From Marsupella aquatica (Eukaryota; Plantae; Marchantiophyta): a stretch of DNA of 64,000 bases. The notes under the pieces were generated by a model, which was not told the origin of the DNA, made no database searches, and was given only the letters and a program-made list of their open reading frames with translations. Every line of letters starts with the position of its first letter. Within the stretch, counting starts at the first letter, position 1. Of this stretch, positions 6,350 through 43,102 are shown in pieces. A program made the translations under genes and the position numbers. The stretch is taken from positions 16,212,645-16,276,644 of the forward strand of contig OZ316893.1 in NCBI GenBank assembly GCA_973895155.1, read 5' to 3'.

Positions 6350-6570
6350 TCGATCGAAAGCTAAAGAAATTTAGAAACTCATGACCACTTTAGTACTTGA
6401 AAAAATCTCCCAATGTTACATTCATTGGAAAGCTAAAGAACATTGGAAACTTATAATCTCCTCAGAACTCAACTAAATCTATCAATGTTAAGTTCATTAA
6501 AAAGCTAAAGAATTTTAAAATTCATAATCTCTTTAGTACTCAATAAAATCTGTCAATTTTAGGTTCATTC
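6350..6570. repeat. Diverged ~72-bp tandem repeat, about 3 copies
   Basis: aaagctaaagaa recurs at about 6357, 6429 and 6501 with similar flanks. Confidence 0.7.
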
Positions 6571-11919: not shown

Positions 11920-12079
11920 TATAGTTCATATTGTCTTCATTCTGCAGTTTGGTTAGTGACGCCCACAATTCCACGGTTCTCCTAATTGCGTCATTGTATA
12001 GTTCATATTGTCTTCATTCTGCAGTTTGGTTAGTGACGCCCACAATTCCACGGTTCTCCTAATTGCGTCATTGTATAGT
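11920..12079. repeat. Perfect 77-bp tandem duplication
   Basis: atagttcatattgtcttcattctgcag...gcgtcattgt starts at 11921 and again at 11998. Confidence 0.9.
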
Positions 12080-14700: not shown

Positions 14701-15218
14701 ATGTGTCGTATGCTAATAAAAGCAAATATCAAGAAATATATGCTAAAAACTCGGTGTTCGTTCCTGTGGAATAACAAGAATGAGATGATAAAATATTTTA
14801 AAGTCTTTTGAGTGGTTTAGAGATGGTACTCGACATCTTGAAGAAAAATAGAATCTTAAATAAAACATAGGTAATTAACAAAATATGAACAAAAGTGACA
14901 TTTGTTGAATAATAGAATCTTAAAGCTTTTAGAGGTATAGTTTAGCAATCTTTAAGTCCATCCTCATGTATTAAGAAGGAGTTATGGCATTGTTTGAGAC
15001 TGTCGTGACATATAGTATCGTAGCCATATAGTGTATCGAAAACATACAAGTCACCAGCAATGCATATGTGCAAGCTGCTAGCAACCAACATGCATAGAAA
15101 AAGTTCAATCACATTCACAAGTGCCAAGAAAAAGCAAGTGAGGTGGTATGTACGTAGTGGAGGTATAAACCTCTGTATCCCCCCCCAGACCACAGCCAAA
15201 AGGAGGGCTGAAGAAAAG

Positions 15219-16910
15219 TCAGATAGCACGTGGAGCACAGGAAGGGCAAAACCATAACCCTTCTGGCACCTGGGTAAGTTCAGGCCGAAGGCAGAAAAGA
15301 TGGTACCCTCCATTGCAATTGTCACACAGCAGCATCATCAATTCGCAAACACACTGATCTGATAAAGCATCAGCATCATCAATTCGCAAACACACTTTGC
15401 AAGGGTAGTCCACAGGTGGAATCCAAGTAGAAGTCACAATGGTGGGATCCAGGTTAGGCAGATGACAAGGGGCGCAATTCTTGGCATTGTCAGCAATTGT
15501 GCGCCCATCTGCCCCTTGTAACTCTAGCACTCCAGACGGTCGAATAGCTTTAACCCTGAGAATAGTACGACTGGTAGAGGTGTCCAGGGTGTCGTTAGCT
15601 TGCCGCTGCAAGTACACAAAATCTCCCACATCAAACTTCCTGACCTTGGGCTGAAAAGTGCCACCTCGTGTGTGTGCATAACGCAGTGTGTCCCTGTGCT
15701 GTGCAATGGTCAAATTCTCCATGGCCATGGGCATAACCCTCCTGAATAGGGCAGCCCTCTCAGAGATCACATCAGACCAAGTCACAGCTGAATCCAAGTC
15801 CACCACCTGAAGCATGTGAGCAGCAATAGCAGAAGGTGGAACTGGGTGACGACCAAACAACAAGAAGTAGGGAGAAAAGTTAGACAGTGATGCATGTCTG
15901 GACATCCTATACCCCATGGCAATGTAGGGTAAGGCCAGGTCCCAATCCTCCTTGTTTTTGGTGAGGCAGATCTTCCGGAGACCCTTCTTGCATGTCTGAA
16001 CCATGCGCTCTGCCAAGCCATCTGCCTGTGGGTGATCTCGTGATGTCCGGCGATGATCAATGAGGGCCTGATCAAGCAGCTCCTGGAACTCTCCTCTAAA
16101 CTCTGAGCCCTGGTCAGTGAGACATTCTGCACAAGCTCCAAAGCGGCTGAGAACTTGTTGCAGGAATGCCTGGCTGGTGCTACGGGAGGTCTTATCCGGC
16201 AATGCCACAAGTTCTATCCACTTGGAGAAATGCTCTATCATGATCATGATGTAGAGATTACCCCGAGATGTGAGGGGTAATTCTCCAGCCAAATCACATG
16301 ACCAGCGATAAAACATGCCCTGAATAGGGAGTGGATGAAGTGTGGGTTGCCGAGATGTGAAAGAAGTCCTCACCCTATCACACTGTTCACACCGGGCAAT
16401 AACATCTCGAACCTGGCCATGCATGCCTCTCCAATGATAATGAGGGACCAAGAGGCTGTAAGTCCTCTTAACACCAAAATGACCAAGCTCAGAATGTACC
16501 TTACGGATAAGGCCAACCCTCTCATGAATGGGTGGAACCACCACTTCCCTGTCTAGCAAGCAGCGCACGAGATGATCTCCCTTCCACAAGTAGCGCTTGG
16601 ACCTTTGCTGAATTCGGTCTCTCTGGGCAGCAGTAACATGTGTGGGGTACTCCCCATGCTGCAAAAATCTCAGAGTGTCGCTGTCCTCCCATATGTCCAC
16701 CACAGGTTGGTCAACAACATAGCATGGCAGCAAAGCAAGATAGGTCGATGCATGAAATGTAGGCAGGATGGAAACCTGGTCAAAATCTTGCCGTGCATCT
16801 GAGGAATCATCAGAGGTAATCAAAGGGTTGCGGGACATAGTGTCAGCATTCTGATGTGTCACACCAGGCCTATGAATTACCTCAAAATCATACTCCTGGA
16901 GTATGAGCGC
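15219..16910 (-). CDS. Integrase with C-terminal PHD finger
   Basis: HHCC motif (HSELGH..CEQC), DDE core (CDLAG..TDQGSEF..LAERMV), then CKVC..MLLCDNCNGGYHLFCL..VPEGLWFCPSC (Cys4-His-Cys3). A short tandem duplication at about 15330-15396 lies inside the PHD. Confidence 0.92.
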   Translation of the reverse strand, partial: ALILQEYDFEVIHRPGVTHQNADTMSRNPLITSDDSSDARQDFDQVSILPTFHASTYLALLPCYVVDQPVVDIWEDSDTLRFLQHGEYPTHVTAAQRDRIQQRSKRYLWKGDHLVRCLLDREVVVPPIHERVGLIRKVHSELGHFGVKRTYSLLVPHYHWRGMHGQVRDVIARCEQCDRVRTSFTSRQPTLHPLPIQGMFYRWSCDLAGELPLTSRGNLYIMIMIEHFSKWIELVALPDKTSRSTSQAFLQQVLSRFGACAECLTDQGSEFRGEFQELLDQALIDHRRTSRDHPQADGLAERMVQTCKKGLRKICLTKNKEDWDLALPYIAMGYRMSRHASLSNFSPYFLLFGRHPVPPSAIAAHMLQVVDLDSAVTWSDVISERAALFRRVMPMAMENLTIAQHRDTLRYAHTRGGTFQPKVRKFDVGDFVYLQRQANDTLDTSTSRTILRVKAIRPSGVLELQGADGRTIADNAKNCAPCHLPNLDPTIVTSTWIPPVDYPCKVCLRIDDADALSDQCVCELMMLLCDNCNGGYHLFCLRPELTQVPEGLWFCPSCAPRAI

Positions 16911-17052
16911 TCAACGAGCAAGCTTGCCAGTAAGCTTGTCGTTGGTCATCAACCACTTCAAGGGCTGGTGGTCGGTGTAGAGAACAAACCTGGTCCCATA
17001 GAGGTAGGGCCTATAATGTATGACAGCCCACACAACAGCAAGGCATTCACCC

Positions 17053-19359
17053 TCATAAGAAGAATAATGACTCTGCCTGATTGTTGCTCCTGGATGCATA
17101 GGCAATGACGTACTCTTTACCTTCCTCATCATGCTGGCCCAGAATGGCACCAATCCCAAGGGCACTCCAATCTGTGTGTAGCACAAAGACCTTGTTGAAA
17201 TCAGGTCTTCTTAGCACCGGGTATTCTGAGAGCTTCTCCTTCAAAGTGGCAAATGCTGCCTCAGCATCTGTACTCCATGTCCAAGTCACATTCTTTTTCA
17301 ACAAAGCATACAATGGGTGTGCAATGGTACTGAAATCTTTGATGTAGATCCGGTAGTAATTGCACAACCCAATAAAACTCCTCAAAGTGTGAACATCAGT
17401 AGGAGTGGGCATTTCCAAGATGGATACCACCTTGGCCCAGTGAGCCATGGTTCCATTTGGAAGAATGCGATGCCCAAGATATACTACTGATCTGACAGCA
17501 AATTCACACTTCTTGGGGTGTATCTTTAGGTTCACCTTCTTAAGCCTCATGAATAGCTCCTCAAGGTCAAGTAGATGCTGGTCAAATCCTTTGCTGTGGA
17601 CCAACACATCATCAATGTAGCATTTCAGAAACTCAGTACCTTGCAGAACCTGGTCCATGACTCTTTGAAAGAATATGGGCGCATTCTTCAAGCCAAATGG
17701 CATCACCAACCACTCCCATAGTTGGTTACTACCATGGAAAGTTGTTTTCTTGCGATCCTTTGCAAGCAGCAAAATCTGGTTGAAGCCTTGCCTTAGATCC
17801 ACAAGAGTGAAGATGTCTGAGTCTCCAATGCTGTCAAATAGCTCCTCTGGCCGCGGCATGGGGTACCTGTCCTGGGGTGTGACCAGGTTCAATGGCCTAT
17901 AGTCCCCACACATGCGCTTCTCTGTCCACAATCCACTGGAATCCTTCTTTGCTGGCATCACTGTAGCTGCCGCAAAATCTGATGTAGATGGCTGAATAAG
18001 ACCAGCTTCATAAAGCTCTTGGCACCTCTCATCCACCAGCTGCCACTCATGCTTACTCAAACGGTGTCTCCGCCTAAAGATAGGTGTTTTATCAGCCAAC
18101 TCAATGGAGAACTGCATAGTCTTGCACTTACCCAAGTCCTTCATAGAGAAAGCAAACACATTCTCATGCTTGAGGAGCAAATTCAGCAGCTGGTCCTTCT
18201 GTCTTTTACTCAGGTGGTTGCCCATGATAAATGTGTAGTTGACAACACTAGGAATAGGACCTGATGTACTCGTGCTTGAAGAGCCAGAAGTGCCAGCCTC
18301 TCCACTGTCCAAGCTGCTAGCATGCTGTTGATAAGGTGATGAGGCCTCTCCAAGGCCTGTTGTATCTGTTGCTCTGGTCTGATCCACACCATGAAACTCA
18401 GAAATAATGTCAGCCACATTACAAGGGACCTCCTCCCCCCCAACACTTGGACTGAAGCGGTGAGTGTTGAATAGAGGTAAGTGCACCTGGTCTGGATGCC
18501 ATGTAGCAGCACTATGGAGGGGTAGGGCTGGAGCTCCTAATGCTGGAGGAATGTACATCTGAAAAAGGATGCAAGTGACCAGAAGCCAAGTGAGAGCATT
18601 GAGATCCATTACCCTACCAAGTAAAGCATTCCTGGCCAGCCTGGTGATTTTGGTGTGACCTGTAGTACTGGGTTGGAAGCCCATAGCCCGTTCTCTCTCC
18701 TCAGGACTAGGTTCATCCCATGTACCGGTAGAATGTTGATAAACCAGCCCAGGACCATCACCCTGAAAAGCATGTGCACCTGGAAAGGACACAAATGTAG
18801 GCCAAGCAGCACGGGGTTGTCCAATGGTATTAGCTGGATACCAAGGTGCTGGCTCATGCTGTGTAACTGGTTGGCAAGAACTGTCAGGATCCAAAATCTG
18901 GTCCACTATAAGGTTAGTGTCCCTGGATGTGTGGTGAAGAGCCATCTCCAGCAAGGAAGGTGGTGCAAGGTTAGTCCAAAAGTTACAAAGACGATGTGCA
19001 TAAGAACCACAGTGCACTGCATCAATGAGAAGGGGTGGTCCCAAGTAGTGCTGGACCACACTGAAATCCTCTTTGACCTGTGGACGCTGGTCAAACTGAG
19101 ATGGAGTATTCTCAATGATATAACCAACAGCAGGATAAAGGGATTGAGCCCAGGTGAGAATCTGAACCAATGCTATGAAAAGGCCAGAACGAGAATCATG
19201 CAGTCCAGCACCGTGACCAGCAGCTAAAAACCCTTGGCATTCCCAACCAGCTATGATCAAATCAAGGGAGCCAAGAAGGGTTAAGTGCCGGTGCTGGACA
19301 AGCTGGATATCTGGAGGAAAGAAAGAAAATGCAGACTTCCATGCACTGTGTGGAAACTG
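17053..19359 (-). CDS. DNMT3-like catalytic domain (motifs IV-X), reverse transcriptase and RNase H
   Basis: DLIIAGWECQGF (IV), YIIENT (VI), AHRLCNFWTN (VIII), ERERAMGF (IX), RLARNALLGR (X); RT RMCGDYRPLN, MPFGLKNAP, YIDD; RNase H LHTDWSALGIGAIL. Frameshift near 17070 and a W-to-stop at 16911. Confidence 0.9.
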   Translation of the reverse strand, partial: QFPHSAWKSAFSFFPPDIQLVQHRHLTLLGSLDLIIAGWECQGFLAAGHGAGLHDSRSGLFIALVQILTWAQSLYPAVGYIIENTPSQFDQRPQVKEDFSVVQHYLGPPLLIDAVHCGSYAHRLCNFWTNLAPPSLLEMALHHTSRDTNLIVDQILDPDSSCQPVTQHEPAPWYPANTIGQPRAAWPTFVSFPGAHAFQGDGPGLVYQHSTGTWDEPSPEERERAMGFQPSTTGHTKITRLARNALLGRVMDLNALTWLLVTCILFQMYIPPALGAPALPLHSAATWHPDQVHLPLFNTHRFSPSVGGEEVPCNVADIISEFHGVDQTRATDTTGLGEASSPYQQHASSLDSGEAGTSGSSSTSTSGPIPSVVNYTFIMGNHLSKRQKDQLLNLLLKHENVFAFSMKDLGKCKTMQFSIELADKTPIFRRRHRLSKHEWQLVDERCQELYEAGLIQPSTSDFAAATVMPAKKDSSGLWTEKRMCGDYRPLNLVTPQDRYPMPRPEELFDSIGDSDIFTLVDLRQGFNQILLLAKDRKKTTFHGSNQLWEWLVMPFGLKNAPIFFQRVMDQVLQGTEFLKCYIDDVLVHSKGFDQHLLDLEELFMRLKKVNLKIHPKKCEFAVRSVVYLGHRILPNGTMAHWAKVVSILEMPTPTDVHTLRSFIGLCNYYRIYIKDFSTIAHPLYALLKKNVTWTWSTDAEAAFATLKEKLSEYPVLRRPDFNKVFVLHTDWSALGIGAILGQHDEEGKEYVIAYASRSNNQAESLFFL

Positions 19360-22300
19360 CTAAGGAAATCGCTCTGAACATTCCAGCAGACGGGATTCAG
19401 CCACTTGCCTTGCACCTGGATCAATATCCACATAGATGTACTGCTTCACCACCATGCCAGACTGTAGGAGAGCTTCCAGGCCTGTAGAAATGCCACCAAA
19501 AAGCTCAAGCAATGTAAGGCCATCTGAAGGAGGAGTCCATGTAACTGGTGCGCTCAAGATTGGGGCTATTGGTAGTCCATGATGCTGCCCAAGGTCCTCA
19601 AATTTGTGCAATGCAGCCACCAAAGGTCCATGGGCTACTTGGAGCCGTTGTACCACCTCTGGTTGATGATCCACGTTGCTGGAAAGTGCTGCTACACGTG
19701 CAGCAGCATGTGCAGTAGCCACCTCATCCTCATCATCCTCAATCCAATCCTGCAATGGGTGGTTGACATAGGTAGCTATGTGCACTGCTTTCAATACACA
19801 GTGGTGAGCCATAGGTGTATGGGCACCATGCAAATCAAGTGGAATGTAGCCCAAGTGTGAGCCATCCGTATGCCAATCAACTCTGTAGTATGCATGCTCA
19901 TGCCAATTGTCAATGGTAAAACCTGGTGGGAACAAAGCCTCCTGGCCAATGAGCACATCATACGTAGTGGCATTGGTAACCAAACATCTGACTGGGAAAT
20001 GCAATTCCTGATCTGTACCTCCATTAAAAGTGAGAGTGAGTAAAGTAGAACTCTCACCCAGCACATCCTCCACAGTGCCACTAGCAGTCCGAATGTGCCA
20101 CCTGGATTGCTGTAAATGATCAGTCAACAGTCCCATCTTCTTGGCAAACTGAATGCCCAATATCACTGGTTGAGCACCTGTGTCTAGCATGACCACCTGA
20201 GGAGTGTGACCCTCCAACTTGACTGCTGAATTCCTGTTGTCAACAATGGCAATGGTGGTGGAAACTAAAGTCCTGTCACTAGGCACCACTTTTGGCAAAT
20301 GATGAGGTACCTTGTGAAGGGAGTTAGTGTCCACGGTCTTTCCACTCAACAACATAGCCAGGAAAGATGGAGCAGCATGACCAGAATCAAGTGTAGCTCT
20401 GGTCACACAATCAGCAGCAATCGGTACTGGGGCAGCCAAACCAGTGGAAACATGTAAAGGAGAAGAAAAAGGTCCAGTATGTACATGAGATTGGACCTCC
20501 AAAACCGGTGTCATAGGGGCTGATGAAGAATGCAGTGAGCCCTCTAGCGCTCTGATGACAGCTCTAGCATCCAGCTGTAAATCATGGCAACTGAAAAGTG
20601 GAGTTGTAAGAATCCTTTGTGCCATACCGGAGGTGAAATGCTCAAGCAGCTCAGGAGAAACAACTCCCTGTGAAATGTCAGCAGCACCTGGTGGTGGAAT
20701 GGATGTAGCTGCAGCTCCCTCCCCCCTCGCCAACAAGGTGCGCTCTTCAGCAAGTGTGAGTGGCTGAAAAGATTGGGGCAGGACAGCCCGAGCGCCCCTG
20801 GCTCTAGTCAGAGGACCGGCAGCAAGACCATCAGCCTGTACAATGCGGCGTGTGGGAGCAATACGGGAGGCAACACTGGCCTGCTGGTAAGCAAAATAGG
20901 AAGGGCAGAATGAATCTGAAAATTCTGCTGTAAGGCCAGGCTGTGGAGCAGAGGACAACACACACTCACCCATATGAGCATCAAATGGTAAGCCATAGAA
21001 AGAGCGGGGTAGAGGTGCTGAACTGTCAGCGGTGCCTGGGCCAGGGATGGGTTGCACGTGACCAGCCGGTTGAGAAGGACCAGCAGAGGCAGTGGACTTG
21101 CCTTTGATGTTGGCAAGTTGGGCACGTAAGGACTCAACCTCATGAGTCAGAGACTGGAGTTGAGTTGCCTGTGCGTTGTGAGCCTCCTTCTGAGCTGGTT
21201 GCTTCTGTGGCTGCTTGGGCAATTTGTTAGCACCGGGTGCTTTGCCACTGGAAGGAGGAGCAGTGGATGCAGTAGGAGCCCTCCTAGCTGGTGGGGGAGT
21301 GGAAACAGGAGCAGGATGAGTGGCCTGCTGTCGTAGCTGCTTCCTCTCGGGGAATTTGGCAAAATAGACTGCCTCCAAGTGGCCCACTTTCCCGCAAAAA
21401 TCACAAGATAGGTCCTCAGCAACAATATCACATTCATTAGCCTTGTGATTAGGGTTACCACAGTAGTTGCAAGATGGCAGCATGAAAGCAGCATGTGCTG
21501 GCTTGGTCTTGGAACCATACTGTGGCACACGGGGAGGAGTGGCCAGTGTAGGGGCAGCAGCCTGGTACCTGGATCGCGGTGGACGTGCAATACTGGCCTC
21601 ATAATGTGCATGGGCCAACTCAAGTTTCTCAGCAGTGTCATAGACATTGAGCAAGGTGTAGCTGTCTCCAAACTCTGAGAATACTTGTTGCAACACTTGT
21701 GAATGGAGAGCTGGTGTGCCCTCCAATGCGCGAAGATAGCGATGAGCAACTTCCAGGTCAGTGATGCTCTGGGTGTCCTCCTTCAGCTTGAGAAGCCGGA
21801 GATACATCATCTTCAATGTTTCATCGCGCTGCCTCACAAAGGTGGCCAACTGCATGATTTTGTCAGCACTCTTGATTGGGAATTCCAATTCAAGAACCTG
21901 GAAAAACTCAGCCACTGGATCAGCAAAGGCAGGGGAATCAATGGTGGGAGAAATGCCTGATGTAGCCTGTGCCAAGACAGTGGGAGTAACAGGCGCAGTG
22001 GTAGGAACTGGAGTAGGAGGGGAAGTGGCAGGAGCAGCAACATGGGCTGCAATGGCATTTTGTAAGGCCAATTGTGAAGCTGCCACAATTGCACTGGCAT
22101 AGGTAGGTGGGTTAGGCAACTGTGTGACAGCAAGCAGCCGTTGAGAGTGCTGCTTATACACATCTAAAGCCTCATGGTGCACATACCTGGCTAGCTGCTT
22201 AAATGCAAACGCATTTGTGAAATTGCTGCCGTACTTCAACTCCAATTCGTAAACGACAGTGTAAAAAGTGGATTTGAACTCACATAAAGAGACAGTGCCT

Positions 22301-22614
22301 GGCCGCCCGCTGAAGCGCTCAATGCGGCCAGATGAGTGGCTGGCATCCATGCTGTATGTCGGTGAAGCAGGAACAACCACTGATGCAGAAGGGGTAAATG
22401 GCAATGAAGTGATAGCAGGCTTCGGAGTAGTGGTGAAGCAACCGCCAAATGTAGCAGGAGGATTGCGTGGTGTTGGTGCTGCTGCTGTCTGCGGACGTCG
22501 TCGAAATTGACGAGACTCCAATGAAATTGGCACCAATGGTCGTGGATCACTCCGTAAGTGGTACCGGGGTGTCGGTGGCGATGAGCTGCTACGACTCGGC
22601 TCCTCTGCTGACAT
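19360..22614 (-). CDS. Gag-protease plus N-terminus of the C5 DNA methyltransferase (first segment of the polyprotein)
   Basis: Zinc knuckles CNYCGNPNHKANEC and CDFCGKVGH; aspartic protease VMLDTGAQ; DNMT motif I LLELFGGISTGLEAL and motif II YVDID. Ends at an in-frame TAG, and the same frame continues into the 19260 ORF. Confidence 0.9.
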   Translation of the reverse strand: MSAEEPSRSSSSPPTPRYHLRSDPRPLVPISLESRQFRRRPQTAAAPTPRNPPATFGGCFTTTPKPAITSLPFTPSASVVVPASPTYSMDASHSSGRIERFSGRPGTVSLCEFKSTFYTVVYELELKYGSNFTNAFAFKQLARYVHHEALDVYKQHSQRLLAVTQLPNPPTYASAIVAASQLALQNAIAAHVAAPATSPPTPVPTTAPVTPTVLAQATSGISPTIDSPAFADPVAEFFQVLELEFPIKSADKIMQLATFVRQRDETLKMMYLRLLKLKEDTQSITDLEVAHRYLRALEGTPALHSQVLQQVFSEFGDSYTLLNVYDTAEKLELAHAHYEASIARPPRSRYQAAAPTLATPPRVPQYGSKTKPAHAAFMLPSCNYCGNPNHKANECDIVAEDLSCDFCGKVGHLEAVYFAKFPERKQLRQQATHPAPVSTPPPARRAPTASTAPPSSGKAPGANKLPKQPQKQPAQKEAHNAQATQLQSLTHEVESLRAQLANIKGKSTASAGPSQPAGHVQPIPGPGTADSSAPLPRSFYGLPFDAHMGECVLSSAPQPGLTAEFSDSFCPSYFAYQQASVASRIAPTRRIVQADGLAAGPLTRARGARAVLPQSFQPLTLAEERTLLARGEGAAATSIPPPGAADISQGVVSPELLEHFTSGMAQRILTTPLFSCHDLQLDARAVIRALEGSLHSSSAPMTPVLEVQSHVHTGPFSSPLHVSTGLAAPVPIAADCVTRATLDSGHAAPSFLAMLLSGKTVDTNSLHKVPHHLPKVVPSDRTLVSTTIAIVDNRNSAVKLEGHTPQVVMLDTGAQPVILGIQFAKKMGLLTDHLQQSRWHIRTASGTVEDVLGESSTLLTLTFNGGTDQELHFPVRCLVTNATTYDVLIGQEALFPPGFTIDNWHEHAYYRVDWHTDGSHLGYIPLDLHGAHTPMAHHCVLKAVHIATYVNHPLQDWIEDDEDEVATAHAAARVAALSSNVDHQPEVVQRLQVAHGPLVAALHKFEDLGQHHGLPIAPILSAPVTWTPPSDGLTLLELFGGISTGLEALLQSGMVVKQYIYVDIDPGARQVAESRLLECSERFP

Positions 22615-22939
22615 GCTGCATGCTCACCCGGGGTGCCTAAATCAAAAATGTCCCCCTTCCCGGTGGTACGAGGTGCTGAGGGGAAAGAAACTGACAAGAA
22701 AAATGGGTGCTAGCCCCAAGGCTAGGAAATAAAACCCACAAAGGAAACAACCGTGCGAGGCAGAAATGTGTAGACTGGCCCTGCCGAAAATATACTCACA
22801 AAAAAAATGAACAGAAAGAAAACAAGAGGAAACGGCGAAAAGGGGCCTCCGTTATGTGTATAGACAGGGGTCTGTGTATACACATAAAGGGTACCGGTCG
22901 GTGTTGGGTATTTACTCTTACGTCTAGGTTAGGTATGAC

Positions 22940-23064
22940 GTGGTTGGTACAACAACGTGGGTTGGTACAACTACGTGGTTAGGTACAACTACGTGATTAG
23001 GTACAACTATGTGGTTAGGTACAACTACGTAATTAGGTACAACTATGTGGTTAGGTACAACTAA
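22940..23064 (+). repeat. 18-bp tandem array (GTGGTTAGGTACAACTAC) in the Copia LTR; repeated at about 28554-28678
   Basis: About 7 near-identical head-to-tail units with no spacers. Confidence 0.9.
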
Positions 23065-24028
23065 GTTGCACACTATATCATAAGAGGCATGTGTGCTTGG
23101 AGAGGTAGAACCAAGGCTCATTGTTATGGAGCCACTTGAGAGATAGGGAGAGCTTACACTGTGGAGACTCGGTATAGCCGACGGGCTTAGAGTTCAGTAA
23201 AGCTCTCTTGTGTGTTCCCGTGGACGTAGCCTCAAGGAGGTGAACCACGTATCTCTTGTGTCGACTATTGTGCGTTGGATGGTTCATGGGCTTGCCGTTG
23301 CGATCGTCGTCTATGCTCAACAATTGGTATCAGAGCATGCTTGGGAGGTGACGTGTGTTCGTGACGGGATTTCATGACGGTTTTTCCAGCGTTGAGTGTT
23401 GGTGGATTTTCCAGAGTTCCATCGCATGGAACTTGGAGTTTATGGGCTCAACGGATAGATCAGGGCAAGAGCTTTCTAACGGTGTGAAGAAATCGTTGAA
23501 CGGAGCTCGTGGTGCAGAGAGATCTAAGTTTTCGTCGTTCTGGATTTTGTGAAGAAAGTTGGCAATCGACTCGGAGGGAGAAGCGTCAAGTGTTTTGACT
23601 CAACGGAGAGATTGAGGCAAGACGATTGTTTTTGAGTCCGGGATTGGCTCTTTGATGCAAAGAGGAAGGCTAAGCAAAATCAATTACCTTGTTGGACTTG
23701 GTGACTGCACCAAGTGCAATTGATCAACATTCGTTGTTGACAAGTGAGGTCGTAGCCATTGAAGTTGGCAATGCAGCGCACCAATCACATCGCAATTCCG
23801 ACAACGGGTTGTACTTGGTATTTCGGTTATTCCCTGAGGTGGTCAAAACGGGGGAGTTTCCCAAGGTTTTACCCACCTCGACCGAAATTTGAATAACTTT
23901 TCCGTCAAATTTCGATTTTGATTTTGGTTTTCAGTATTGGACTCCTAGCTTTGTGGGCTACGCGGCGATGTTGAGTTTCGAGTTTTTTGAGAAGTTGTGA
24001 AAAACAACATTTTTTGTGACTTTCTCAT

Positions 24029-25063
24029 ATGAGTGATTCGGAGGAGTTTTTCGAAGACGTGGAACTTGAAGCACGAGGATCACCACGGAGGTTTCAGGGG
24101 CAGAGAGAGGAGCAGGAGGAAGAGCACGTGACACCGATACCATCACCGGTGCGGCGTGTGGTGGAGGAAGCAGTACTACTACCGGAGCTCACGGTAAAGA
24201 AGAAGATGGGGACTTTCAAGCTTGGGGGACCCAAGTATGAAGTGACAAAGTATGATGGGCGCTCTGACTACTTGCTATGGGAGAAGCAGGTGAAGGGAGT
24301 GCTTTATGCGTCAGGGATGGGCCAACTGCTGAGCCCTCGTGAAGACGATGTTGATGAGAAACAATGGGACCGCATGCAGGAGCAGGGAGTGTGGTGTGTT
24401 ACACTCTATCTCATGCCTCCCATCATCAAGCAGTTAGGTGCACATAAGGATTGCATGTCCTTGTTTGCGGAATTGCAGAGCAAGTATCACCGCAAGGAGT
24501 TGTCGAACCGGCTCTACACTTCCTACAAACTGATGAGTTTCAGGATGAAGGAATCTGGTACGAAGTTGCAAGACCATGTGGATGCTTTCAACGACATGGT
24601 CGTTGACTTGGAAAACCTTGGGGAGACTTTGAATGATGAGACGAAGGCTCTGCAGCTTCTTAGTTCATTGCCTCCATCTTACCAGTCCCTATCACGAGTG
24701 TTGTTGCATCGTGATAGGGATACCATTTCATACAATGACGTGGTAAGTTCTTTGCTTAGTGATGATCTTCAGCAGAAGATGCACATCACGTCACAGCCTT
24801 CATCATCTGGTGCTACCCTCAATGTTAACCGTGGGAGGAGTATGCAGCGACCAACTGGGGACCGTAGAACCCAGTTTAGATCTAAATCCAGATCTAAGTC
24901 CAAGGGTAAATCCCCTCAGAGGAGGCAGGTGACATGTTGGAAGTGCAACCAAGTTGGACACTTCAAGCGAGACTGTAAGGGAAAGGCAGCGGAAACTTCA
25001 TCGGCAAATGTGGCTAGGGCTGATGGAGAAGCTGATTTACTCAATGATGAGTATGTTTTATGA
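24029..25063 (+). CDS. Copia Gag
   Basis: KYDGRSDYLLWEKQV, LLSSLPPSY, and zinc knuckle CWKCNQVGHFKRDC. Ends in a TGA that is in frame with pol. Confidence 0.92.
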   Translation: MSDSEEFFEDVELEARGSPRRFQGQREEQEEEHVTPIPSPVRRVVEEAVLLPELTVKKKMGTFKLGGPKYEVTKYDGRSDYLLWEKQVKGVLYASGMGQLLSPREDDVDEKQWDRMQEQGVWCVTLYLMPPIIKQLGAHKDCMSLFAELQSKYHRKELSNRLYTSYKLMSFRMKESGTKLQDHVDAFNDMVVDLENLGETLNDETKALQLLSSLPPSYQSLSRVLLHRDRDTISYNDVVSSLLSDDLQQKMHITSQPSSSGATLNVNRGRSMQRPTGDRRTQFRSKSRSKSKGKSPQRRQVTCWKCNQVGHFKRDCKGKAAETSSANVARADGEADLLNDEYVL

Positions 25064-28000
25064 AGCCGGGGGTATGCCCTGTGCACGTCATCTAGGAGAG
25101 CAGATGATGTGTGGATTCTTGATTGTGCTTGCTCTTTTCATATTTGTTACATTCGTGAGTTTTTCAGTTCTTACTCTGTTTCAAACGGTTCAGTTCTGAT
25201 GGGAAATGATCACTCCTGTCAAATTGAGGGAATTGGGTCTGTGAAGATTCAAATGTTTGATGGCGCTGTGCGCACAGTGTCCGGAGTCAGGTATGTACCT
25301 GGCATGCGTAAGAATCTGATTTCACTCGGTGTGTTGGATTCAAATGGTCATCAATGGAGCGTTATTGATGGTGAACTTCAAGTCAGGTCGGGAGAGACAG
25401 TGATTTTGAAGGGGAGTAGACAAAAGAATTTGTATGTGTTATAGGGCAATACTGTATGTGGAGAGGCCAATATAACCAAGTCTCACGAGGAGATGACTCA
25501 ACTGTGGCATTCACGGCTAGGCCACATGAGTGAGAAGGGTTTGGCTATCTTACGGAAGAATGGACTCATTTCTGATTTGCAATCTTGTAAATTAGAGTTT
25601 TGTGAGCATTGCATTCTTGGAAAGCAGCATCGTCGTGCTTTTGGTGTTGGAACTCATCGTTCCAAAGCGGTTCTTGAGTACATACATAGTGACGTGTGGG
25701 GTCCATCCCCGACTCCCTCACACTCTGGAAAGTTGTACTATGTATCATTTATTGATGATTACTCAAGATTTGTGTGGATTTATTTCATGACGCATAAGTC
25801 TGATGTCTTGTCCATTTTTAAGAAGTGGAAGGCCCAGGTGGAGAATCAGACTGGAAACACGATCAAGTGTTTGGATACAAGGGTGAAGAGTCTGAGGTCA
25901 GACAACGGCGGGGAGTACACTTCAATGGAATTTGAAGAGTACTGTTCAGAACAGGGGATAACTCGCCATCTCACCACAGTTTATACTCCGCAGCAGAATG
26001 GTGTCGCTGAGAGGCTCAATCGGACACTGTTGGAGCGGTCACGGAGTATGTTGAGCCAATCAGGTTTACCACAAGAATTTTGGGCAGAAGCTGTCAATAC
26101 CGCAGCTTATTTGGTAAATCTTTCTCCTTCTAGTGCTATCAATTTCAAAACGCCATTTGAGATGCGCTATAAGCGGCAAGCAGACTATCATGGCTTGGTA
26201 ATTTTTGGAAGTGATGCATATGCTCTCACACCAAAGCAAAATAGGACCAAGTTGGATCCTACCTCCAGGAAATGTGTTTTTCTTGGGTACCAGAGTGGTG
26301 TGAAAGCCTATAGGCTATGGGATCCTATTGCCTGTAAGCTCGTTGTCAGTAGGGATGTTTCCTTCAATGAATCCAGATTATTGAAGGAGGGGGAGAATAC
26401 TCAGGTCTCCCGTACTGACAAAGGAAAATCTCCTATCCCGGATCTCGTTGAGGGGAAGATTGGTTATGAGGTGCATGACCGGAGAGAAGGAGTTGCTCCA
26501 ATTATGGAGCTGGTTCCTATGCCAGAGGAACCAGAGGAGTTTGTTGATGCTGGTGAGCAACAAGTGGATGCTGTTGAGCTTCAAATTGTACCAGCACACG
26601 CAGATCAACCAGAGTCATCGGCTAGAAGAACATCTGGTCGCACTGTACGCGCTCCATCAAGGTATGGACAGTGGGTTGATTCATCTCAACTGCAAGAGGA
26701 TGATTTTACAGTTGATGATGAGGGTGATGCGTTAATTTTGGAAGAAGGAGAACCTTCTTCATTTCATGAGGCAAGTGCTTCAAAAGAGAAGCAGAAGTGG
26801 ACTGCAGCAATGCAAACGGAGATGCAGTCACTAAAGGACAACAAAACTTGGGAGCTTGTTAAGCTGCCTAAGGGTCAGCAAGTGGTGGACAGCAAGTGGA
26901 TTTACAAGCTGAAGGATAATTCCATAGGAGGTGGATCGAAGGTCTACAAGGCTAGATTGGTAGCAAAGGGATTCACACAAGAGAAAGGTGTGGATTACAA
27001 TGAGGTCTTCTCACCAGTTGCTAAGTACTCTATAATTCGACTATTGTGTGTACTTGTTGTAATGTTTGGTCTGCTCCTAGATCAGATGGATGTTGTCACA
27101 GCTTTCCTCTATGGCACATTGGAAGAGGTGATCTTCATGAGACAACCGCTAGGTTTTGTGAAGAGAGGACAGGAGGAATTGGTTTGCAGATTGCTGAAAT
27201 CCTTGTATGGGTTGAAGCAGTCACCAAGACAGTGGAACAAGCGGTTTGACGATTGGATTCGGTCACAAGGTTTTCACAGAAGTGTATTTGACCCTTGTGT
27301 GTATTTGAAACCGGTGAAGAATGTTGTCTTTGGGTTCATTATTTTAGTACTTTATGTGGATGACATGCTAATTGCAGCCAAGGATAGGTCTGAGATTGTT
27401 AAGCTCAAGGCACTGCTTAGTGCAGAGTTTAAGATGAAGGACTTAGGGCCAGCTAAGAGGATTTTGGGTATGGAGATCACTAGGGACTTGGAGGCTGGCA
27501 AGCTATGGTTGACGCAGAGCAGTTATGCGAGGAAGGTAATTGCAAGGTTCAACATGGAGAATAGCAAGCCAGTAAGTACCCCGTTGGCTCCACACTTCAA
27601 GTTATCATCAGCGTTCTGTCCTACGGATGACACAGAGAAGGGGTTGATGTCAAAGGTTCCATATGACAAGGCAGTGGGGAGTCTCATGTATTTGATGACT
27701 TGCACTAGACCTGATCTTGCCATGGCTATGGGCAAGGTGAGCAGGTACATGTCGAATCCAGGGAAGGTACACTGGGAAGCAGTGAAGTGGATTATCAGGT
27801 ACTTGAAGGGTACCGTGGATCATGGTCTTTTATTTGATGCGAATGCAAAGAATGCTAGATCATTGATTGGCTATGTAGATTCTGACTATGGACAAGATTT
27901 GGACCGAAGGAGATCAACAACAGGATACGTGTTCACACTTGGCGGTGGATGCATAAGTTGGAGGTCTACTTTGCAGAAGTGTATTGCTCAGTCTACTACA

Positions 28001-28324
28001 GAAGCGGAGTATGTTGCAGCTGCGGAAGCGATTTGGTTGGATAGACTTATCACTGAAATGGGATTGCCACAGGGGAATGTGAAGCTCCATTGTGATAGTC
28101 AAAGTGCGCTCCACCTTGCTGTGAACCAGGTGATGGACAGCAGAGTGAAGCACATTGACGTCAGGTACCATTTTATCAGGCAGGCTGTGTCTGATAATTT
28201 GTTTGAGCTAGTCAAGATTGATGGTAAACTCAACCCGGCTGACGCATTTACCAAAGTGATTCCTTTGGAGAGTTTCTCTAGACACCGTGACGTATTGCAG
28301 GTTTTGCAATTGCATCACAAGTAG
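25064..28324 (+). CDS. Copia Pol (PR-INT-RT-RH) with one internal TAG at 25442-25444
   Basis: WILDCACSFH (PR), WHSRLGH..CEHC, HSDVWGP, SDNGGEY, QNGVAER (INT), KARLVAKGF, LYVDD (RT), YVDSDY..STTEAEY..KHIDVRYH (RH). Confidence 0.95.
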
Positions 28325-29815
28325 AGTTTTCTTAAACATTCATTGTAATTACTGATATATGCTCTTCCTCATTCCTATGTATTAGGCTACGGCTTAGTTC
28401 TGGTTTGCTCTAGTTAGAGAGGGAAACCGGTTTGGTTTTTGTCCAGAACTTCCCGCTGAGGGATCATATACATTGGCAGTATTACTCTCCCCTAGACCAG
28501 AGTCAAGGGGAAGATTGTTGGGTATTTACTCTTACGTCTAGGTTAGGTATGACGTGGTTGGTACAACAACGTGGGTTGGTACAACTACGTGGTTAGGTAC
28601 AACTACGTGATTAGGTACAACTATGTGGTTAGGTACAACTACGTAATTAGGTACAACTATGTGGTTAGGTACAACTAAGTTGCACACTATATCATAAGAG
28701 GCATGTGTGCTTGGAGAGGTAGAACCAAGGCTCATTGTTATGGAGCCACTTGAGAGATAGGGAGAGCTTACACTGTGGAGACTCGGTATAGCCGACGGGC
28801 TTAGAGTTCAGTAAAGCTCTCTTGTGTGTTCCCGTGGACGTAGCCTCAAGGAGGTGAACCACGTATCTCTTGTGTCGACTATTGTGCGTTGGATGGTTCA
28901 TGGGCTTGCCGTTGCGATCGTCGTCTATGCTCAACAGTCGGTACCCAATGTGGATACATCGTCGGGCTCCCTGGAAGAAAAAGAGGCGGGAAAGAAGCAG
29001 GTGTACGCACACTCGGGAGGCACGGTACCCTATGCTGCAGGGCGAGGCGAGGCGAGGCTGAGGCGAGGTGACAACTTAATGGCTCGGGCCCTGCATAGGG
29101 CTTCGTGCCCCACTATGAGCTCCCCCTATCCCCCTTTTGGGCCTTGTGCCCTGGCAGCGAGTGACTCCCGAGAGAGGAGTCGCGAGTACTCCCCCCCCTC
29201 TTTAAAGTTGAATTAAGGGCTTCGTGCCCTGCAGGAGAACTCCCGTGTGAGGGAGTTCGAATTGAACTCCCCTCCTCCTTGCACACTCGCTCCCCCTCCT
29301 TCCTGCTTTGGCTTGTACTTGGCTCCCCCTGCCCCTGCTTTAATGTTGCTTAGGGCCTCGTGCCCTCTCCTGCGCTCCTGCCTCCTGCCCTGATTCCCCC
29401 TATCCCTGCTTTAATTACTCCATAGGGCCTCGTGCCCTCCGTCCCCCCTCGCTTGCTTGTGGCAGGGCGACGAAAAGGAAGGGAGTCGATCCCCCTCCCC
29501 TTGTGGCAGAAAAGAAAGGAAGAAAAGGGGCGTTGCGAGGGGGAGAAACGGGCGCGCGGCCCTATGCACTTGGGAGGTAATCGCGGGGTGGCCGAGGCTG
29601 CCAGGAGGTGGTCGCGCGGTGGTCGAGGCAGCCGGGAAGTAGTCGCGCAACGGCCGGCAAACACCGAAAGAAAAATGGCCCAAATAAGCACCGAAAAATG
29701 CCAAAAGTGGTGGATGAGTCGTGCAGTCAGCAGTCGGCAGCCATAGTCGAGTTGCGGCCGACAAGAAATATCCGGGCCCCTTGTTATGTGTATACACTTA
29801 AGTATACACATAACA

Positions 29816-32800
29816 TCACAATAAACCCATAACTTTTAACTCGTCACTCCGATGTCCGTCGAAGAAATTGCAATGGCTTCACCAGAAATTGTCGAAATCG
29901 TCATGAGCAATCTTCTTCCCGTCACCGCTAACTCGAGAGTTCTTCTTGAATAAAAGGCGTGATAGAAACAAACGTACTGAAATCGAATCGAAAACCGGCG
30001 AGATGCCAAGATCGGCCAGGAGCATCTAACGAATCACTGTGTGAATTCCGTGTACGGAACCGACGAGCAGCCTCTGAAAAACTCTGTCTCACAGCGATTC
30101 AAGAAGAACTGAAGAACGGCAAAGAAAAACATGCCCTAAGTAGGACCGGGTCCAGGCGTCACACTAACAAACCCCTTTTGCTTCAAGAACAGCCCAGACT
30201 CGCTACAAGAACATGACACTAACTCAAGTAGTACATTAGCCCTAACCATACCTAGCGGGCATGCGAGGGACATGCCGATGTGCACAAGCGGCACTGTCCC
30301 TCGGCATGACAAGACATTGATAAATTAAACATAACCTTGCTATAACTGCTCTCTAGGTTTCTATCATAAATCTAAGTTTGAGAAGTGTCTATGCTCACAA
30401 AACCCAAGATAAGTTTTGGATTGTGTGTATAGTAGTGTATCATTAAAATGCCGGCTACATGTTTTCTTCTTCAACGATGCGCAATTCCAAAGGAAAACTA
30501 ATGCACATTCAGTATACCACAATGGTACTTCAAATCTGTGAATTAAGAATGTTGCTACTTCTTAACATATAGATTTCTCTTTCTTGATTACATGCAATAC
30601 TTATCTTCCAAAGATAAGTCCTTCATGTAAAATACAGAAATTGACAACAAATATTGTAGTTTGAATTAGGCACCAACCAACGGATCTTCCAATACAAATA
30701 ACAAGTTATATTTTTATAGGTTTTACTTCTTACGGCAATTGCAACATGCATTACCATACAAAGGAGGGGTAGACTCCTAGCACAAGCAATAAAATTTCAA
30801 GATATACAAATATTCCTTGCAAAAATTGCATTACAAGTACAAGGGACAAACTCCAAGATGAGGAGATGCAAATAACTATCCACACTGTCTCAAAATGAGA
30901 CTGGTATCACAATAAGTACATAAAATTGCCCACTGACTAAGGAGAATGAAGAGACATGCCTCTTCATTTCCTAAGTCTAAACTAAGTGAAATAAAAGTCA
31001 ACTTTGACTAAGGAGTAGTCAAGTAGTCAAAACTAGAATAAGCTAAGTAAAAAGTCTATAAGATAAAGTACTAATCTCATAGTATAATAGGAGAGGGGTC
31101 AACTACAAATAAAGTAAGACGAGCTACAAAACCAAGGCTATCTTTCCTTTAGCCTTCTGTCCCTTCAGATACTGTCGACAAAAAAGGTCCTCACGATAAT
31201 GAATAAGTTGTGGCTCACTGGTCTTTCGGATGGGATGTTCATCTGGTCCGATCCAAACAAAGTAATCTGATGGCCATGGAATGTCTGGGGTTGAAAGAGG
31301 GAAAGGTGCAATGACCTTTTTACAATGATAAACCCAACTCCACAAGTCAAGAGTCTCAATCTCTGGCAGTCGCAGCTTGTTGATAGGAAGCCACAAAATA
31401 CCACGAGAAACCGGAACTGTGTCGTAGGTATGTGGAAAAGGAAAAGACTCACGTCCAAACATAGGTGGAGGTAAGGGAGGTGCAAGAGGAATGCGTGCGT
31501 CAATGAGTGACGTGATCATCCTAGCAAACTTGGAGGGAAAAACAAAAAATGGTTCAATATCGGCAACAAAAGAGACAATAGGAGGCTGAGACACCAAAGG
31601 TGTAGGAGCTATAAATGGTACATTGGGAGGCTCTACAGTCTGAGGCTCAGGCTCAGTCTCAGGAATAGGCTCTGGGGTGGGTTCATTTTCTTCCCCAGTA
31701 GGAGAAGGAAATGAAACAACAGGGAGTGGTAGGGTGGTATCCTCGATGGGGGAGAATGGAATTGGAGTGGGTACTGGTGAAGGGGGTAAAGGCTCAAGGG
31801 TAGGAGATGAAGGGTGCTCGGGTGTAAATGTAGGAGGGATAGGTAAATCAATAATGGGAGAAGGAATGGGATCGGGTAAAGGGGGTGTAGGTGTGGATGG
31901 AAGAGGGAATGAAGGGTCAACAATAGGTATCTCCGGCTCATCCACATCCATAGGGTGGTCAGGCTATGGTGAAGGTGCAAGGGGTGAAACATGAGGTAGT
32001 GGGGTGGGACGAGACTTGAAAATCAAAGTACAAATACAATCAAGTAATTGCATGGGAGTATAACTCTTGAAAAGTCTAGTGGCCTCATCTACCAAATGCT
32101 GGTTGAAACCAGTCACACTAGCTAGTCTCTTGGCATCACCAACAAAATCAGTCCACAATGTGTAAGAGGTGGAAGCAACAAAAGAGGGAGAAATCATCCC
32201 TGGTAGGTCTGGTGCTATCATCTGCTTCACTGGATGGGGTCTTGGTGAAGTTGTGGGCGATGGAGTCAACTCTCCTCCTCCAATTGCTCAGCTCCACCGG
32301 TAACAAGCAGCCTCTCAAAAAGTGAATGTGCGCCAAGTAGGGTGTCAAATAAGTATCATTGGTGGTAGTCACGACAACCACCTGCTTGGCGATCACCTTT
32401 GAAAGAGCTAGGGCCCAGTTGATCTTCCTCTTGCCGGTCCATGAAGCAATGATGGAGCTGGCCAAGTAAACCATAGCCCTGGTAGGCTTGGTCGGATGAA
32501 AGATAGGTACAAGGAATCGGAGTAAATGAGCTAACTCCCGGTTCCTACACTAATCAATCTTCCAACCAGACCTTTGGTTTCTGGTACCTCTAAAGTAGGG
32601 GACAGTCATCTTCTCCAACAGAAATCAATCTCTCTCCAACCTGGCTCAACTGGTACACTAGACCAGTCAAGGGCCTATTTAAGCAGATGAAAATCTCACC
32701 ACCTAAAGTTCACCTAAATGTCTACTACATACTCATGCAGGGGAGTGACCCTAAAGGTTTTCTCAGGATCCAAGAACTTCTCAGCAAAGCACTATCTACT

Positions 32801-40800: not shown

Positions 40801-43097
40801 TGCTTTCCAATTTATGGGCATTTTCGTTGTGTCCTTGGATTGTGTTGATGCTGTATTCGTGAGCTGTGGGAATTGATCTTCATAAAAATGGCAGTCCTGA
40901 TGTCTTGCCTTGAACAGGTCTGCCGTAGTCGGTTCAAGGTATCTAATGATCGAAGTAGAGTCAAACCCAACATAGATACCTGCATTCCGTTGGGGTCCGA
41001 GTTTTGTTCTCTTTGGTCCTAAGATAGGCACCATTACCTGGCATCCGAAAATGCGTAGGTGGGACAGGTCCGGTGGTATGCCGAACGCCAGGTGGTATGG
41101 TGTCTTAGAGTTATATGCTGACGGTCTATATTGGATTAGTGCAGCTGCGTGAAGGATGGCATGTCCCCATGCTGATGTGGGTAAGTTTGACTTCATTAAC
41201 AGTGGTCTTGCCACCATTTGAAGTCTCTTAATAACCGACTCAGCTATACCGTTCTGAAAATGAACGTGGGGAACTGTATATTGAGTATCGATGCCCGCTG
41301 CCCAGCAAAAGTCGTCGAATGTTCTTGATGTGAACTCGCCAGCTCCATCTACTCTTAATCTTCTTGTAGGATACTCTGGGAACTGTGCTCTTAATTTAAG
41401 AATATGTGCTAAGATCCGCGCAAATGCCAAGTTGCGGGTAGATAGCAATGAAATCTGCAGCCATTTAGTTGATGAGTCGATGATTACCAGGAAATATTTG
41501 AAAGGGCCGCTCGGGGGGTCTATAGGTCCGCAGATATCTGCATTGATCTGCTCTAGGAACTGTGGTATTGAAAATATTGTTTTTGGTATTGATGGTCGTA
41601 TGGTCATTTTTCCTTGTGAGCACGCTATGCAGGCTGTTTTTACCTTTGGCTTGACTGTCTTGGGGATTCCTTTGGAGTCCCTTATAATCCTGTTGTACAT
41701 AGTGGTACCCGGGTGGCCCAGTCGACAGTGCCAGATGTATGTCATATCCTCTGATTCTTGGTGTATATGGAATGTTTGGATACTGGTTGCGTATAGGCCT
41801 GGGGGGATCAATGCAAATGTTTCTTTAATGGATGGCTTACCCTGTATGTCTTGTATGATCTGTAATGTCTCTGTTTTGCCCTGAGTATTCGTGCGCAGTT
41901 GGAGGTTATTGGATCTGATATCCTGGAAGCTGATGAGGTTTCGGGTCGATGTGGTGGGGGGTCTGATCCTGCTGGGCGCTTTCTGGCGTTTTGCAAGGCC
42001 ACGATCTGTTGCTTCTCTTCCACAAGTAAGTGAGCAATCAGATCTGAGTACTTAGTGAAACGCATGTTCCTATATTGTGTACCTAATGTGATATTAGATT
42101 CAGGGAATGTCGATAGTGTCTTATCGATTCTATCTATGTCATTTATTGGATGTCCACACATTTCTAATTGAGATGTAATTCTGCACAGTGCGCTATTGTA
42201 ATTGGCAATTGTGGTGTGGTCCATGACGCGCAGGTTATGCCAATCCCTTCTTGCCTCTGGGAGCCATATCTCCCTCATATGATCAAATCGGGCTTTGAGG
42301 AGATCCCATAGTTTTCTTGGATTAATTTCGTTCATATACTCATTCTTTAGTTGAGGGGTTAGATGTTGCCTGAGTAGAAACGCTGCCTTAGCCTTTTGTT
42401 TGAGCGTGACATCGATGTCGGTATCTAAGGTGTCTTCAAGGTCTTGTGATGTAAAGTAAGTTTCGACATCTGTGATCCACGTCAAATAGTTGGATCCGTC
42501 GACTTTAAGTGCTGGCCATAATAATTTTTCGACTGTATTCATTATTCGGGATGTCAGTTGATTTAAGAACTTTGGTGAAGATTGAATCGAGTGAAGTATC
42601 TCGATTGTACAATTGACCGGTTGGAAGCTTGTATATGGAGCTGAGGGAGCTTTCAATCATGCCAATAAAGTATTAGTCCTTTGGACTCTCGATATGCTGG
42701 TCCCGAATTGATGCTCTATGTGAAATTTCGTGTTTTGTAAAAAAATTCAACTCTGAGGCAAAAGAATGGAGACCAAGAAAAAAAACGGTTATGGCAGTTT
42801 CTAAAAAAAAATGCCACTTTACGAGCATTCTCCTCGTGTAAAACTCGATTGCATCTGCTTGAAAAAAAATGATTTTAGAGACTGGCTCGTGCTGATAACG
42901 TGTTGTAATAGACAACTAAAGGAACGCTCAAAGATACTCCAACAAGATAGATCCATTACTATTGATGAGGGGATATATATATCCCCTTGGTTACATGGTA
43001 GGCAAATGCCCTTATACTGGTCCTATGGTTAGGAGTTCTCATACTATGGTTAAGGGTTCTCGCCCTATGGTTAAGGGGTAAACTAGGGTTTACAACA
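37892..43097 (-). mobile_element. Young Bianca-type Copia with an internal deletion
   Basis: 197-bp LTRs (37892-38088 and 42901-43097), identical by eye. TSD ATAAC. PPT AAGGGGGAG. PBS CGTTATCAGCACGA at 42900-42887. Confidence 0.96.
38593..42542 (-). pseudogene. Bianca gag-pol: Gag, (zinc knuckle and protease deleted), INT, RT, RH
   Basis: DGSNYLTW Gag; junction near 41945 into RNLISFQD; WHCRLGH..CIAC; ADICGPIDPPSGPF; in-frame TGA at 40747; RARLVAKGY, YVDD, GYTDAGY, SNHSEII, KHIDPKY. Confidence 0.9.
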
Positions 43098-43102
43098 ATA
43101 AC

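Follow-up and report, generated by a model that had tools for sequence, protein, structure and literature searches.

Within a stretch of 64,000 nucleotides of Marsupella aquatica (Marchantiophyta; assembly GCA_973895155.1, contig OZ316893.1, positions 16,212,645 to 16,276,644 of the forward strand), referred to below as the window, we identified a dead copy of a Ty3/Gypsy retrotransposon whose polyprotein includes a DNMT3-like cytosine C5 methyltransferase. The identity of the element as a member of a Gypsy family with such a domain is practically beyond doubt. Our reading, to which we give a probability of roughly 0.6, is that this family likely methylates its own new DNA and that its split repeats result from self-primed reverse transcription, followed by a circle with two long terminal repeats (LTRs) that the integrase opens. 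The parts of this reading differ in firmness. Judged from the sequences, catalytic activity of the methyltransferase in the family is quite probable; the circle route is a reasonably likely deduction from the repeats; that complementary DNA (cDNA) is the main substrate of the enzyme has slightly better than even odds. Elements of this kind are known and barely studied, and enzyme activity and circle route are predictions.

A DNMT3-type domain in a Gypsy polyprotein

A preliminary description of this DNA had listed seven C5 methyltransferase motifs, in order and in the frame of Gag, protease and reverse transcriptase (RT). All of them were found on the minus strand between 19506 and 18613: ELFGG (19506), VDID (19431), AGWECQ (19251), IENT (19116), AHRLCNFWTN (18999), ERAMGF (18693) and RLARNALLGR (18642). 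The domain (18571..19530, like all parts of the element on the minus strand) thus contains motifs I-X in order and is, to judge by sequence and modelled fold, a DNMT3-type, unpermuted C5 methyltransferase, as had been claimed. Taken as a single protein, its best solved relative was DNMT3A with an expect value (E) of 2.7e-6; a profile of 28 family sequences gave E 1.2e-19 for DNMT3A versus 8e-11 for HhaI and 6e-7 for DRM2. The structure predicted from a 53-row alignment reached a mean predicted local distance difference test score of 95.4. In the Foldseek fold search its best match was again DNMT3A (E 2.9e-18, template-modelling scores 0.71/0.85), and all listed matches were DNMT3 entries. The proposed check against Pfam DNA_methylase gave a divided answer: the window copy, scanned with its in-frame stop read as X, scored 21.1 bits and so narrowly missed the cut-off of 22, which 4 of the 13 scanned relatives passed. 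In motif IV, a Glu precedes the catalytic Cys where DNMT3A has Pro, so that the Pro-Cys pair is absent.

The reading frame opens at an ATG at 22614 and encodes, in this order, Gag, protease, methyltransferase, RT, RNase H, integrase and a PHD finger. Gag (21380..22614) starts at this first ATG, has its conserved start region from 22350, is about 60% identical to its relatives and carries a zinc knuckle (zf-CCHC E 0.0056, below the cut-off). The aspartic protease (19861..20223, LDTGA at 20187; Pfam gag-asp_proteas E 7e-7) and the RT with RNase H (16830..18240, YIDD at 17619; RVT_1 E 4e-28) flank the methyltransferase at distances of 118 and 124 residues, respectively. The best solved relatives of the RT were 4ol8 (E 9e-55) and the Ty3 Gag-Pol 7q5b (E 9e-54). 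A DDE integrase with an H2C2 zinc finger follows (15501..16700; rve E 1e-13, Integrase_H2C2 E 1.5e-13), with 34 residues from the second Asp to the Glu of its triad; no tyrosine recombinase was found by Pfam in the frames scanned, the rve integrase being present instead. The C-terminal PHD finger (15219..15410, stop codon 15221-15219; Pfam PHD E 2e-7) had been overlooked in the earlier list of domains. The Pfam domains, together with the 80 loci described below, bear out a Gypsy polyprotein with the methyltransferase between protease and RT.

The span 15219..22614 proposed before covers the polyprotein, and the element extends beyond it, from 30311 to 15001. These limits are set by a 4-bp target duplication, GTCT, which is exact in the window. 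With TG..CA ends and the layout A-ORF-B, in which A and B are repeats and ORF stands for the open reading frame, the element measures about 9.27 kb once a nested Copia element in its leader is subtracted. Contigs of runs X2 and X3 represent the empty site, linking 14996 to 30312, with four letters matching either side. The element landed within another repeat, as the flanks 14770-15000 and 30312-30900 are fused directly in contigs of other runs.

The window copy is dead because of two stops (19362-19360 within the methyltransferase and 16913-16911), a frameshift near 17055-17070 in RNase H, the loss of a motif VIII Arg (the second one, changed to Cys at 18987), an in-frame duplication in the PHD finger (15327-15396, seen as a repeat and also against the relative P0011) and the nested Copia. 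The three point lesions counted before were an undercount, to which the Arg loss, the PHD duplication and the Copia in the leader have to be added.

Conservation of the domain in the family

At locus level, the relatives are metagenome contigs chosen by the presence of the methyltransferase domain: a scan gave 313 stretches, of which 256 were confirmed and 80 of these 256 kept; the 80 collapse to 57 distinct copies. As far as the contigs extend, all 80 loci showed the domain order of the window copy, including L028, which has internal deletions, and no locus had a different order. The sister copies, whose inspection had been suggested, thus carry the domain at the same place. Contig depth over the domain was about that over RT and integrase, although such depth ranks nothing, and a joint skipping the domain was absent from the 15 joints listed (370 further joints exist).

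The nearest named relatives are land plants, in line with the earlier view of the element as a land-plant representative. A Calypogeia fissa protein was 71% identical to the window copy over 491 aa and Sphagnum magellanicum proteins 61-63%, with S. compactum also among the close named relatives; the best kept loci shared about 85% identity with a protein of Sphagnum magellanicum. RT and integrase were 83% and 81% identical, respectively, between the window and Sphagnum-like copies (L003, P0004, P0011). For the protease-methyltransferase part, the best named match was instead a liverwort protein. This combination may reflect slow evolution or transfer from bryophyte to bryophyte.

Beyond these, 1103 representatives matched at E <= 0.001. 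The domain was present in 136 of 139 long proteins examined, some of which share one cluster, and its place varied: behind RT/RNase H in 64, before an integrase in 31 whose records contain no RT, before RT or behind the protease in 24 and alone in 17. Named members with the layout RNase H-domain-integrase include Haematococcus lacustris and a gene model labelled Chrzof1, which we take to be Chromochloris (P0257, P0401 and P0287 are among the proteins of this layout). Quick trees of family members only, without outgroup and including roughly one third of the 105 proteins in which the domain follows RNase H, separated the two layouts with a support of 100 for RT (10 versus 36 rows) and of 97 for the methyltransferase, with P0005 as the one exception. 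The window grouped with Calypogeia and Sphagnum-like rows (7 rows, support 100). On this sequence evidence, the range of methyltransferase-bearing Gypsy elements solidly extends to mosses, liverworts and chlorophytes, the domain lying at another place in chlorophytes. Individual relatives vary further: P0171 has the domain and no PHD match, P0143 has a chromodomain added behind the PHD finger, and P0333, P0359, P0386, P0208 and P0286 carry PF01585 (G-patch).

The methyltransferase domain is, as far as substitution ratios can tell, under purifying selection. Between the window and 8 loci, the ratio of nonsynonymous to synonymous substitution rates (dN/dS) was 0.04-0.11 for the domain and 0.19-0.41 for the linker upstream, ratios that are rough since dS is near saturation (2.0-5.6). 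At lower divergence (dS about 1.1), L001 compared with L003 and L002 gave 0.09 for the domain, and in close pairs its values of 0.09-0.35 resembled those of RT (0.11-0.18) and integrase (0.18-0.35). Catalytic residues were counted in 173 of 174 long relatives that could be aligned. Cys was kept in 172, Glu in 173 and the two Arg in 171 and 172 of the 173, at identities of 33-45%. The check on selection proposed before, dN/dS together with the catalytic Cys and Glu, thus came out in favor of a maintained domain. Of the three outcomes named beforehand as refuting the earlier view, none occurred, the Pfam score of this copy being slightly short of the cut-off. Among the 57 decayed copies, Cys was kept in 56, Glu in 50 and the Arg pair in 37 and 35, respectively. 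Arg was lost by changes at CG-containing codons, as expected of methylated dead copies in decay.

Split repeats and predicted priming signals

No pair of like LTRs flanks the coding region in the window, and neither a second A nor a second B was found anywhere in it. At the 5' end lies repeat A (29950..30311), which starts with TGTCATG and aligns with repeat A of L003; at the 3' end lies repeat B (15001..15178), which finishes with CACGACA and aligns with B of L003. In relatives, the same termini, TGTCATG ... CACGACA, enclose split direct repeats in the order A-ORF-B-A-B. Among 40 loci with room for a 3' end, 16 ended in B-A-B, 19 in B and 5 otherwise. The 35 loci with B or B-A-B represent 25 distinct sites, of which 12 read B-A-B, 12 read B and one was assembled both ways, so that the A-coding-B-A-B layout occurs at 13 of 25. 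The 5' ends of 28 loci with room showed A alone in 24 and no repeat match in 4. The 4-bp target duplication, assessed at 12 distinct sites with both ends, these being placed by a best-match rule, was exact at 7, had one mismatch at 3 and was absent at 2. We considered 3' ends with B only as proof of one-LTR circles and rejected this, since one and the same site carries B-A-B in locus L020 but only B in locus L035.

The window's host family has the B-A-B end too, because in runs that contain the window's own family, contigs link the B end to the A start and the A end to the B start. Sister contigs displayed many differing flanks past 15001 in 4 of 4 runs.

The two joints of the 3' end differ in character. 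In 13 of 14 loci (the 16 minus two duplicates), the first one, between B1 and A2, has the form GACA-NN-TGTC, where NN is a 2-nt spacer that reads GC or some variant. The A2/B2 joint differs in length by a few bases among loci. A G-run, the predicted polypurine tract, stands directly ahead of B in the window (15179..15186) and ahead of B1 in all five loci displayed.

A predicted primer-binding site (29938..29949) immediately 3' of A is complementary in the window to a stretch inside A, the predicted self-primer (30099..30110), which would be the first 12 bases of the transcript. All 12 of these positions pair, and the complement extends over 14 nt, a length reached in 0 of 200 shuffles. In the relatives, the complementarity of the 12 bases behind A to a stretch within A exceeded that of every shuffle at 12 of 22 loci, and in 11 of those 12 the complement fell at the site behind a TATA box; in 19 of 20 loci, the distance from the TATA box to the predicted primer stretch was 32 nt. 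Two positions were changed on both pairing sides between the window and L003, so that pairing is compensated. The transcript start was derived from the TATA box of the relatives, and self-priming is a prediction from these complementary stretches.

A proposed replication and methylation route

We derived the products expected from these signals by following the textbook course of LTR reverse transcription. The transcript would begin within A, and its first 12 bases would prime at the site behind A in a Tf1-like manner. Priming of the plus strand behind the G-run would lead to a linear BA-ORF-BA, in which the attachment (att) palindrome lies inside each repeat and is not terminal. Joining of the linear ends would create the A/B joint, which is found solely on the 3' side. 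DDE integrases transfer CA-3' ends, and a 2-nt staggered cut of the integrase at the first B/A palindrome would generate such ends; insertion would then yield A-ORF-B-A-B with a target duplication. The A-ORF-B form in the window may stem from recombination between two B copies, from a one-LTR circle or from assembly collapse. The methyltransferase, as part of Gag-Pol packaged with the RNA, would reach the cDNA first and mark it, probably at CG, as the dinoflagellate DIRS enzymes do. The PHD finger linked to the integrase probably reads histone H3 tails for the choice of the site. A likely gain would be a pre-marked arrival, the element passing for host DNA or damping its own activity.

Single steps of this route have precedents. 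Self-priming is known from Tf1 (PMC4600332), and HIV integrase linearises two-LTR circles as a side route (PMC4372172). SymbioDIRS-Dnmt3 gives CG methylation in yeast (PMC5890265), a paper that also discusses such gains of self-methylation for transposons. Fusions of PHD and chromo domains to transposons were reported as well (bioRxiv 10.1101/2021.11.30.470311).

Should the route be true, the two-LTR circle, a side product in retroviruses, would be the obligatory substrate of integration, a route not described as normal for retroelements with DDE integrase. A DDE integrase acting on circles would be relevant to the old dispute on whether two-LTR circles are precursors of integration. The structure of the ends yields concrete predictions for the start site, the primer, the circle joint and the cut site. 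The question why a transposon keeps a silencing enzyme also becomes testable, as methylation mutants and methylome tools exist for mosses, liverworts and chlorophytes. More tentatively, at odds somewhat below even, we envisage an old green-lineage clade of bryophytes, chlorophytes and probably the Klebsormidium family that combines a DNMT3 writer with a PHD reader and has an obligatory two-LTR circle, integrated after the packaged enzyme has methylated it.

Alternative explanations

A number of observations weigh against the proposed reading. On the side of the enzyme, no excess loss of CpG, the footprint expected of self-methylation, was seen: the observed/expected ratio in RT-RNase H was 0.22, identical to that of an unrelated Gypsy fragment (1-1227). 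The ratio ranged over 0.22-0.29 for the element and was 0.44 and 0.79 for two Copia elements, the ages of the compared elements being different; the control in the loci comprised just two segments, of which one had been misassigned, and the loci yielded no Copia segment. The residue before the catalytic Cys was Glu in 110 and Pro in 49 of the 173 long relatives, all five key residues were intact in just 19 of 52 decayed copies, and the window-based selection ratios suffer from the near saturation of dS noted above. KnitGypsy-Dnmt3, an element of Klebsormidium nitens, gave no methylation in yeast, a result its authors call inconclusive (PMC5890265). On the side of the repeats, none of 28 loci had B or a second A ahead of the 5' A, and none displayed the mirror product A-B-A-ORF-B. 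As the circle has two B/A junctions, this one-sided bias of products is left unexplained by the model and is its weak point. The window lacks the second A-B and has no clear TATA box. The compensated changes stem from one comparison of two lineages, and the positions for the pairing count were chosen by likeness to L003.

Some of these points would suit a domain retained for binding of DNA or cofactor, or as a decoy of host methylation partners, without methyl transfer. The Glu in motif IV in place of Pro, the inactivity of KnitGypsy-Dnmt3 in yeast (PMC5890265) and the blank CpG footprint could all be read in this way. We nevertheless consider it quite improbable, since at 33-45% identity the four catalytic residues (Cys, Glu and two Arg) remain in 171-173 of the 173 long relatives, and human DNMT3B likewise failed in the same yeast test (PMC5890265). 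The enzyme might also be active on another target, host chromatin near the insertion site or host genes reached through a complex of integrase and PHD finger, the cDNA not being the main substrate. The methyltransferase and the PHD finger tend to occur jointly: the order RT-RNase H-DNMT-integrase-PHD, with the enzyme adjoining the integrase, is that of most long relatives. The element itself, moreover, has no extra CpG loss. In the window lineage, however, the enzyme lies between protease and RT, distant from the integrase, and some relatives with the domain, such as P0171, have no PHD match; this explanation, too, appears improbable to us.

A more serious competitor, though still an unlikely one, concerns the repeats. 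An extra template switch during reverse transcription could produce A-ORF-B-A-B without any circle, as a linear copy with att ends that integrates in the ordinary way. It would account for the absence of the second of the two products that a circle could give, and TG..CA ends with 4-bp duplications would require no novel activity of the integrase. Two observations speak against it: the A2/B2 joint connects precisely the end set by the primer to the start set by the polypurine tract, with a variation of a few bases as expected of an end-to-end joint, and the palindrome with its 2-nt spacer is shaped as a staggered cut by integrase would require. That a fragment of a host DNMT3 was captured once, or inserted, in a single dead element has next to no chance of being correct. 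The copy is indeed broken and its Pfam score below the cut-off, but the same position of the domain in 80 loci (57 distinct copies), the 1103 representatives and the purifying selection refute this.

Relation to known systems

By analogy of its published description, KnitGypsy-Dnmt3 of the charophyte Klebsormidium nitens (de Mendoza et al. 2018, PMC5890265) appears to be the closest known system and to have the same repeat layout. It likewise has Gypsy domains and an unpermuted DNMT3-like domain in the Pol frame under purifying selection. Its repeats are called DIRS-like, and the layout is spelled A-coding-B-A-B in that paper (legends of Fig. 4c and Fig. 1e). The relatives found here are, by contrast, from bryophytes and chlorophytes, and no match named Klebsormidium appeared in the protein searches with the family. 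In its accessible portion, PMC5890265 holds no mention of a PHD finger, of priming, of a target duplication or of a replication route for KnitGypsy-Dnmt3.

Split direct repeats are otherwise known from tyrosine-recombinase elements; PAT, Toc, Kangaroo, Ngaro and Viper have A1-B1-A2-B2 repeats like those described here (PMC4157794). A methyltransferase inside Pol occurs in DIRS groups as well, SymbioDIRS-Dnmt3 being an example. In contrast to the tyrosine-recombinase elements, the present family combines a DDE integrase and a protease with TG..CA ends and 4-bp target duplications. In Tf1/Sushi and Tcn1, the latter occurring in mosses too, the primer-binding site is complementary to the 5' end of the transcript (PMC4600332, PMC6317226), as is predicted here. 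A comparison of features sets these elements apart by their ordinary paired LTRs, as opposed to the split repeats, PHD finger and methyltransferase found here. As for the Ty3/Gypsy class as a whole, domain order, Ty3-like RT, DDE integrase, TG..CA ends and short target duplication agree with it, and two like flanking LTRs are missing.

REM1 of Chlamydomonas is a Gypsy element with a PHD finger. Gypsy-7a_cRei, also from Chlamydomonas, is a further PHD-bearing Gypsy of the green lineage, with no methyltransferase among the domains listed in the accessible part of the preprint (bioRxiv 10.1101/2022.06.16.496473). Animal DNMT3A and DNMT3B share with the present domain the fold, the order of motifs and the catalytic Cys, Glu and Arg-x-Arg. 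The differences are an identity of about 20%, the Glu before the Cys, the lack of PWWP and ADD domains and the location within a polyprotein.

A search of the literature, mostly by title and in sources outside subscription journals, revealed neither such elements in land plants or chlorophytes nor this replication route. A 2026 preprint (10.64898/2026.05.21.726589) mentions streptophyte Gypsy-DNMT3 elements and, in its accessible portion, does not name land plants; PMC12344493 (2025) restates the 2018 report. The supplementary trees of both might contain bryophyte or chlorophyte members. A survey of plant LTR elements (PMC6317226) has, in the portion available, no mention of PHD or methyltransferase, and its method requires two like LTRs. 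LTR finders with this requirement would miss the family, which may explain its absence from plant surveys.

Other features of the window

The Copia nested in the leader is a Ty1/Copia element on the plus strand (22902..28935) with Pfam Copia domains, a 5-bp target duplication and LTRs at 22902-23321 and 28516-28935 that are identical at 420 of 420 bases. It is young, lies about 290 bases upstream of the first ATG and has two stops in its own frame. In the leader (29096-29439, 29770-29820 and 22840-22890), a 17-base motif is also repeated five times, and two palindromes that resemble each other and look like hairpins were spotted by eye; these may be signals for packaging or dimer formation.

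Outside the element, the unrelated Gypsy at 1-1227 is an RT-RNase H fragment on the minus strand, 40-45% identical to the present element, with no methyltransferase match nearby. A second Copia lies at 38593-42656 on the minus strand and another piece of Copia RT at 43693-44367; identical 197-bp direct repeats at 37892 and 42901 may belong to the LTRs of the second Copia. Tandem arrays occur at 43100-43750, 55283-56114, 6356-6570 and 11920-12073, with units of about 35, 189, 72 and 77 bases, respectively.

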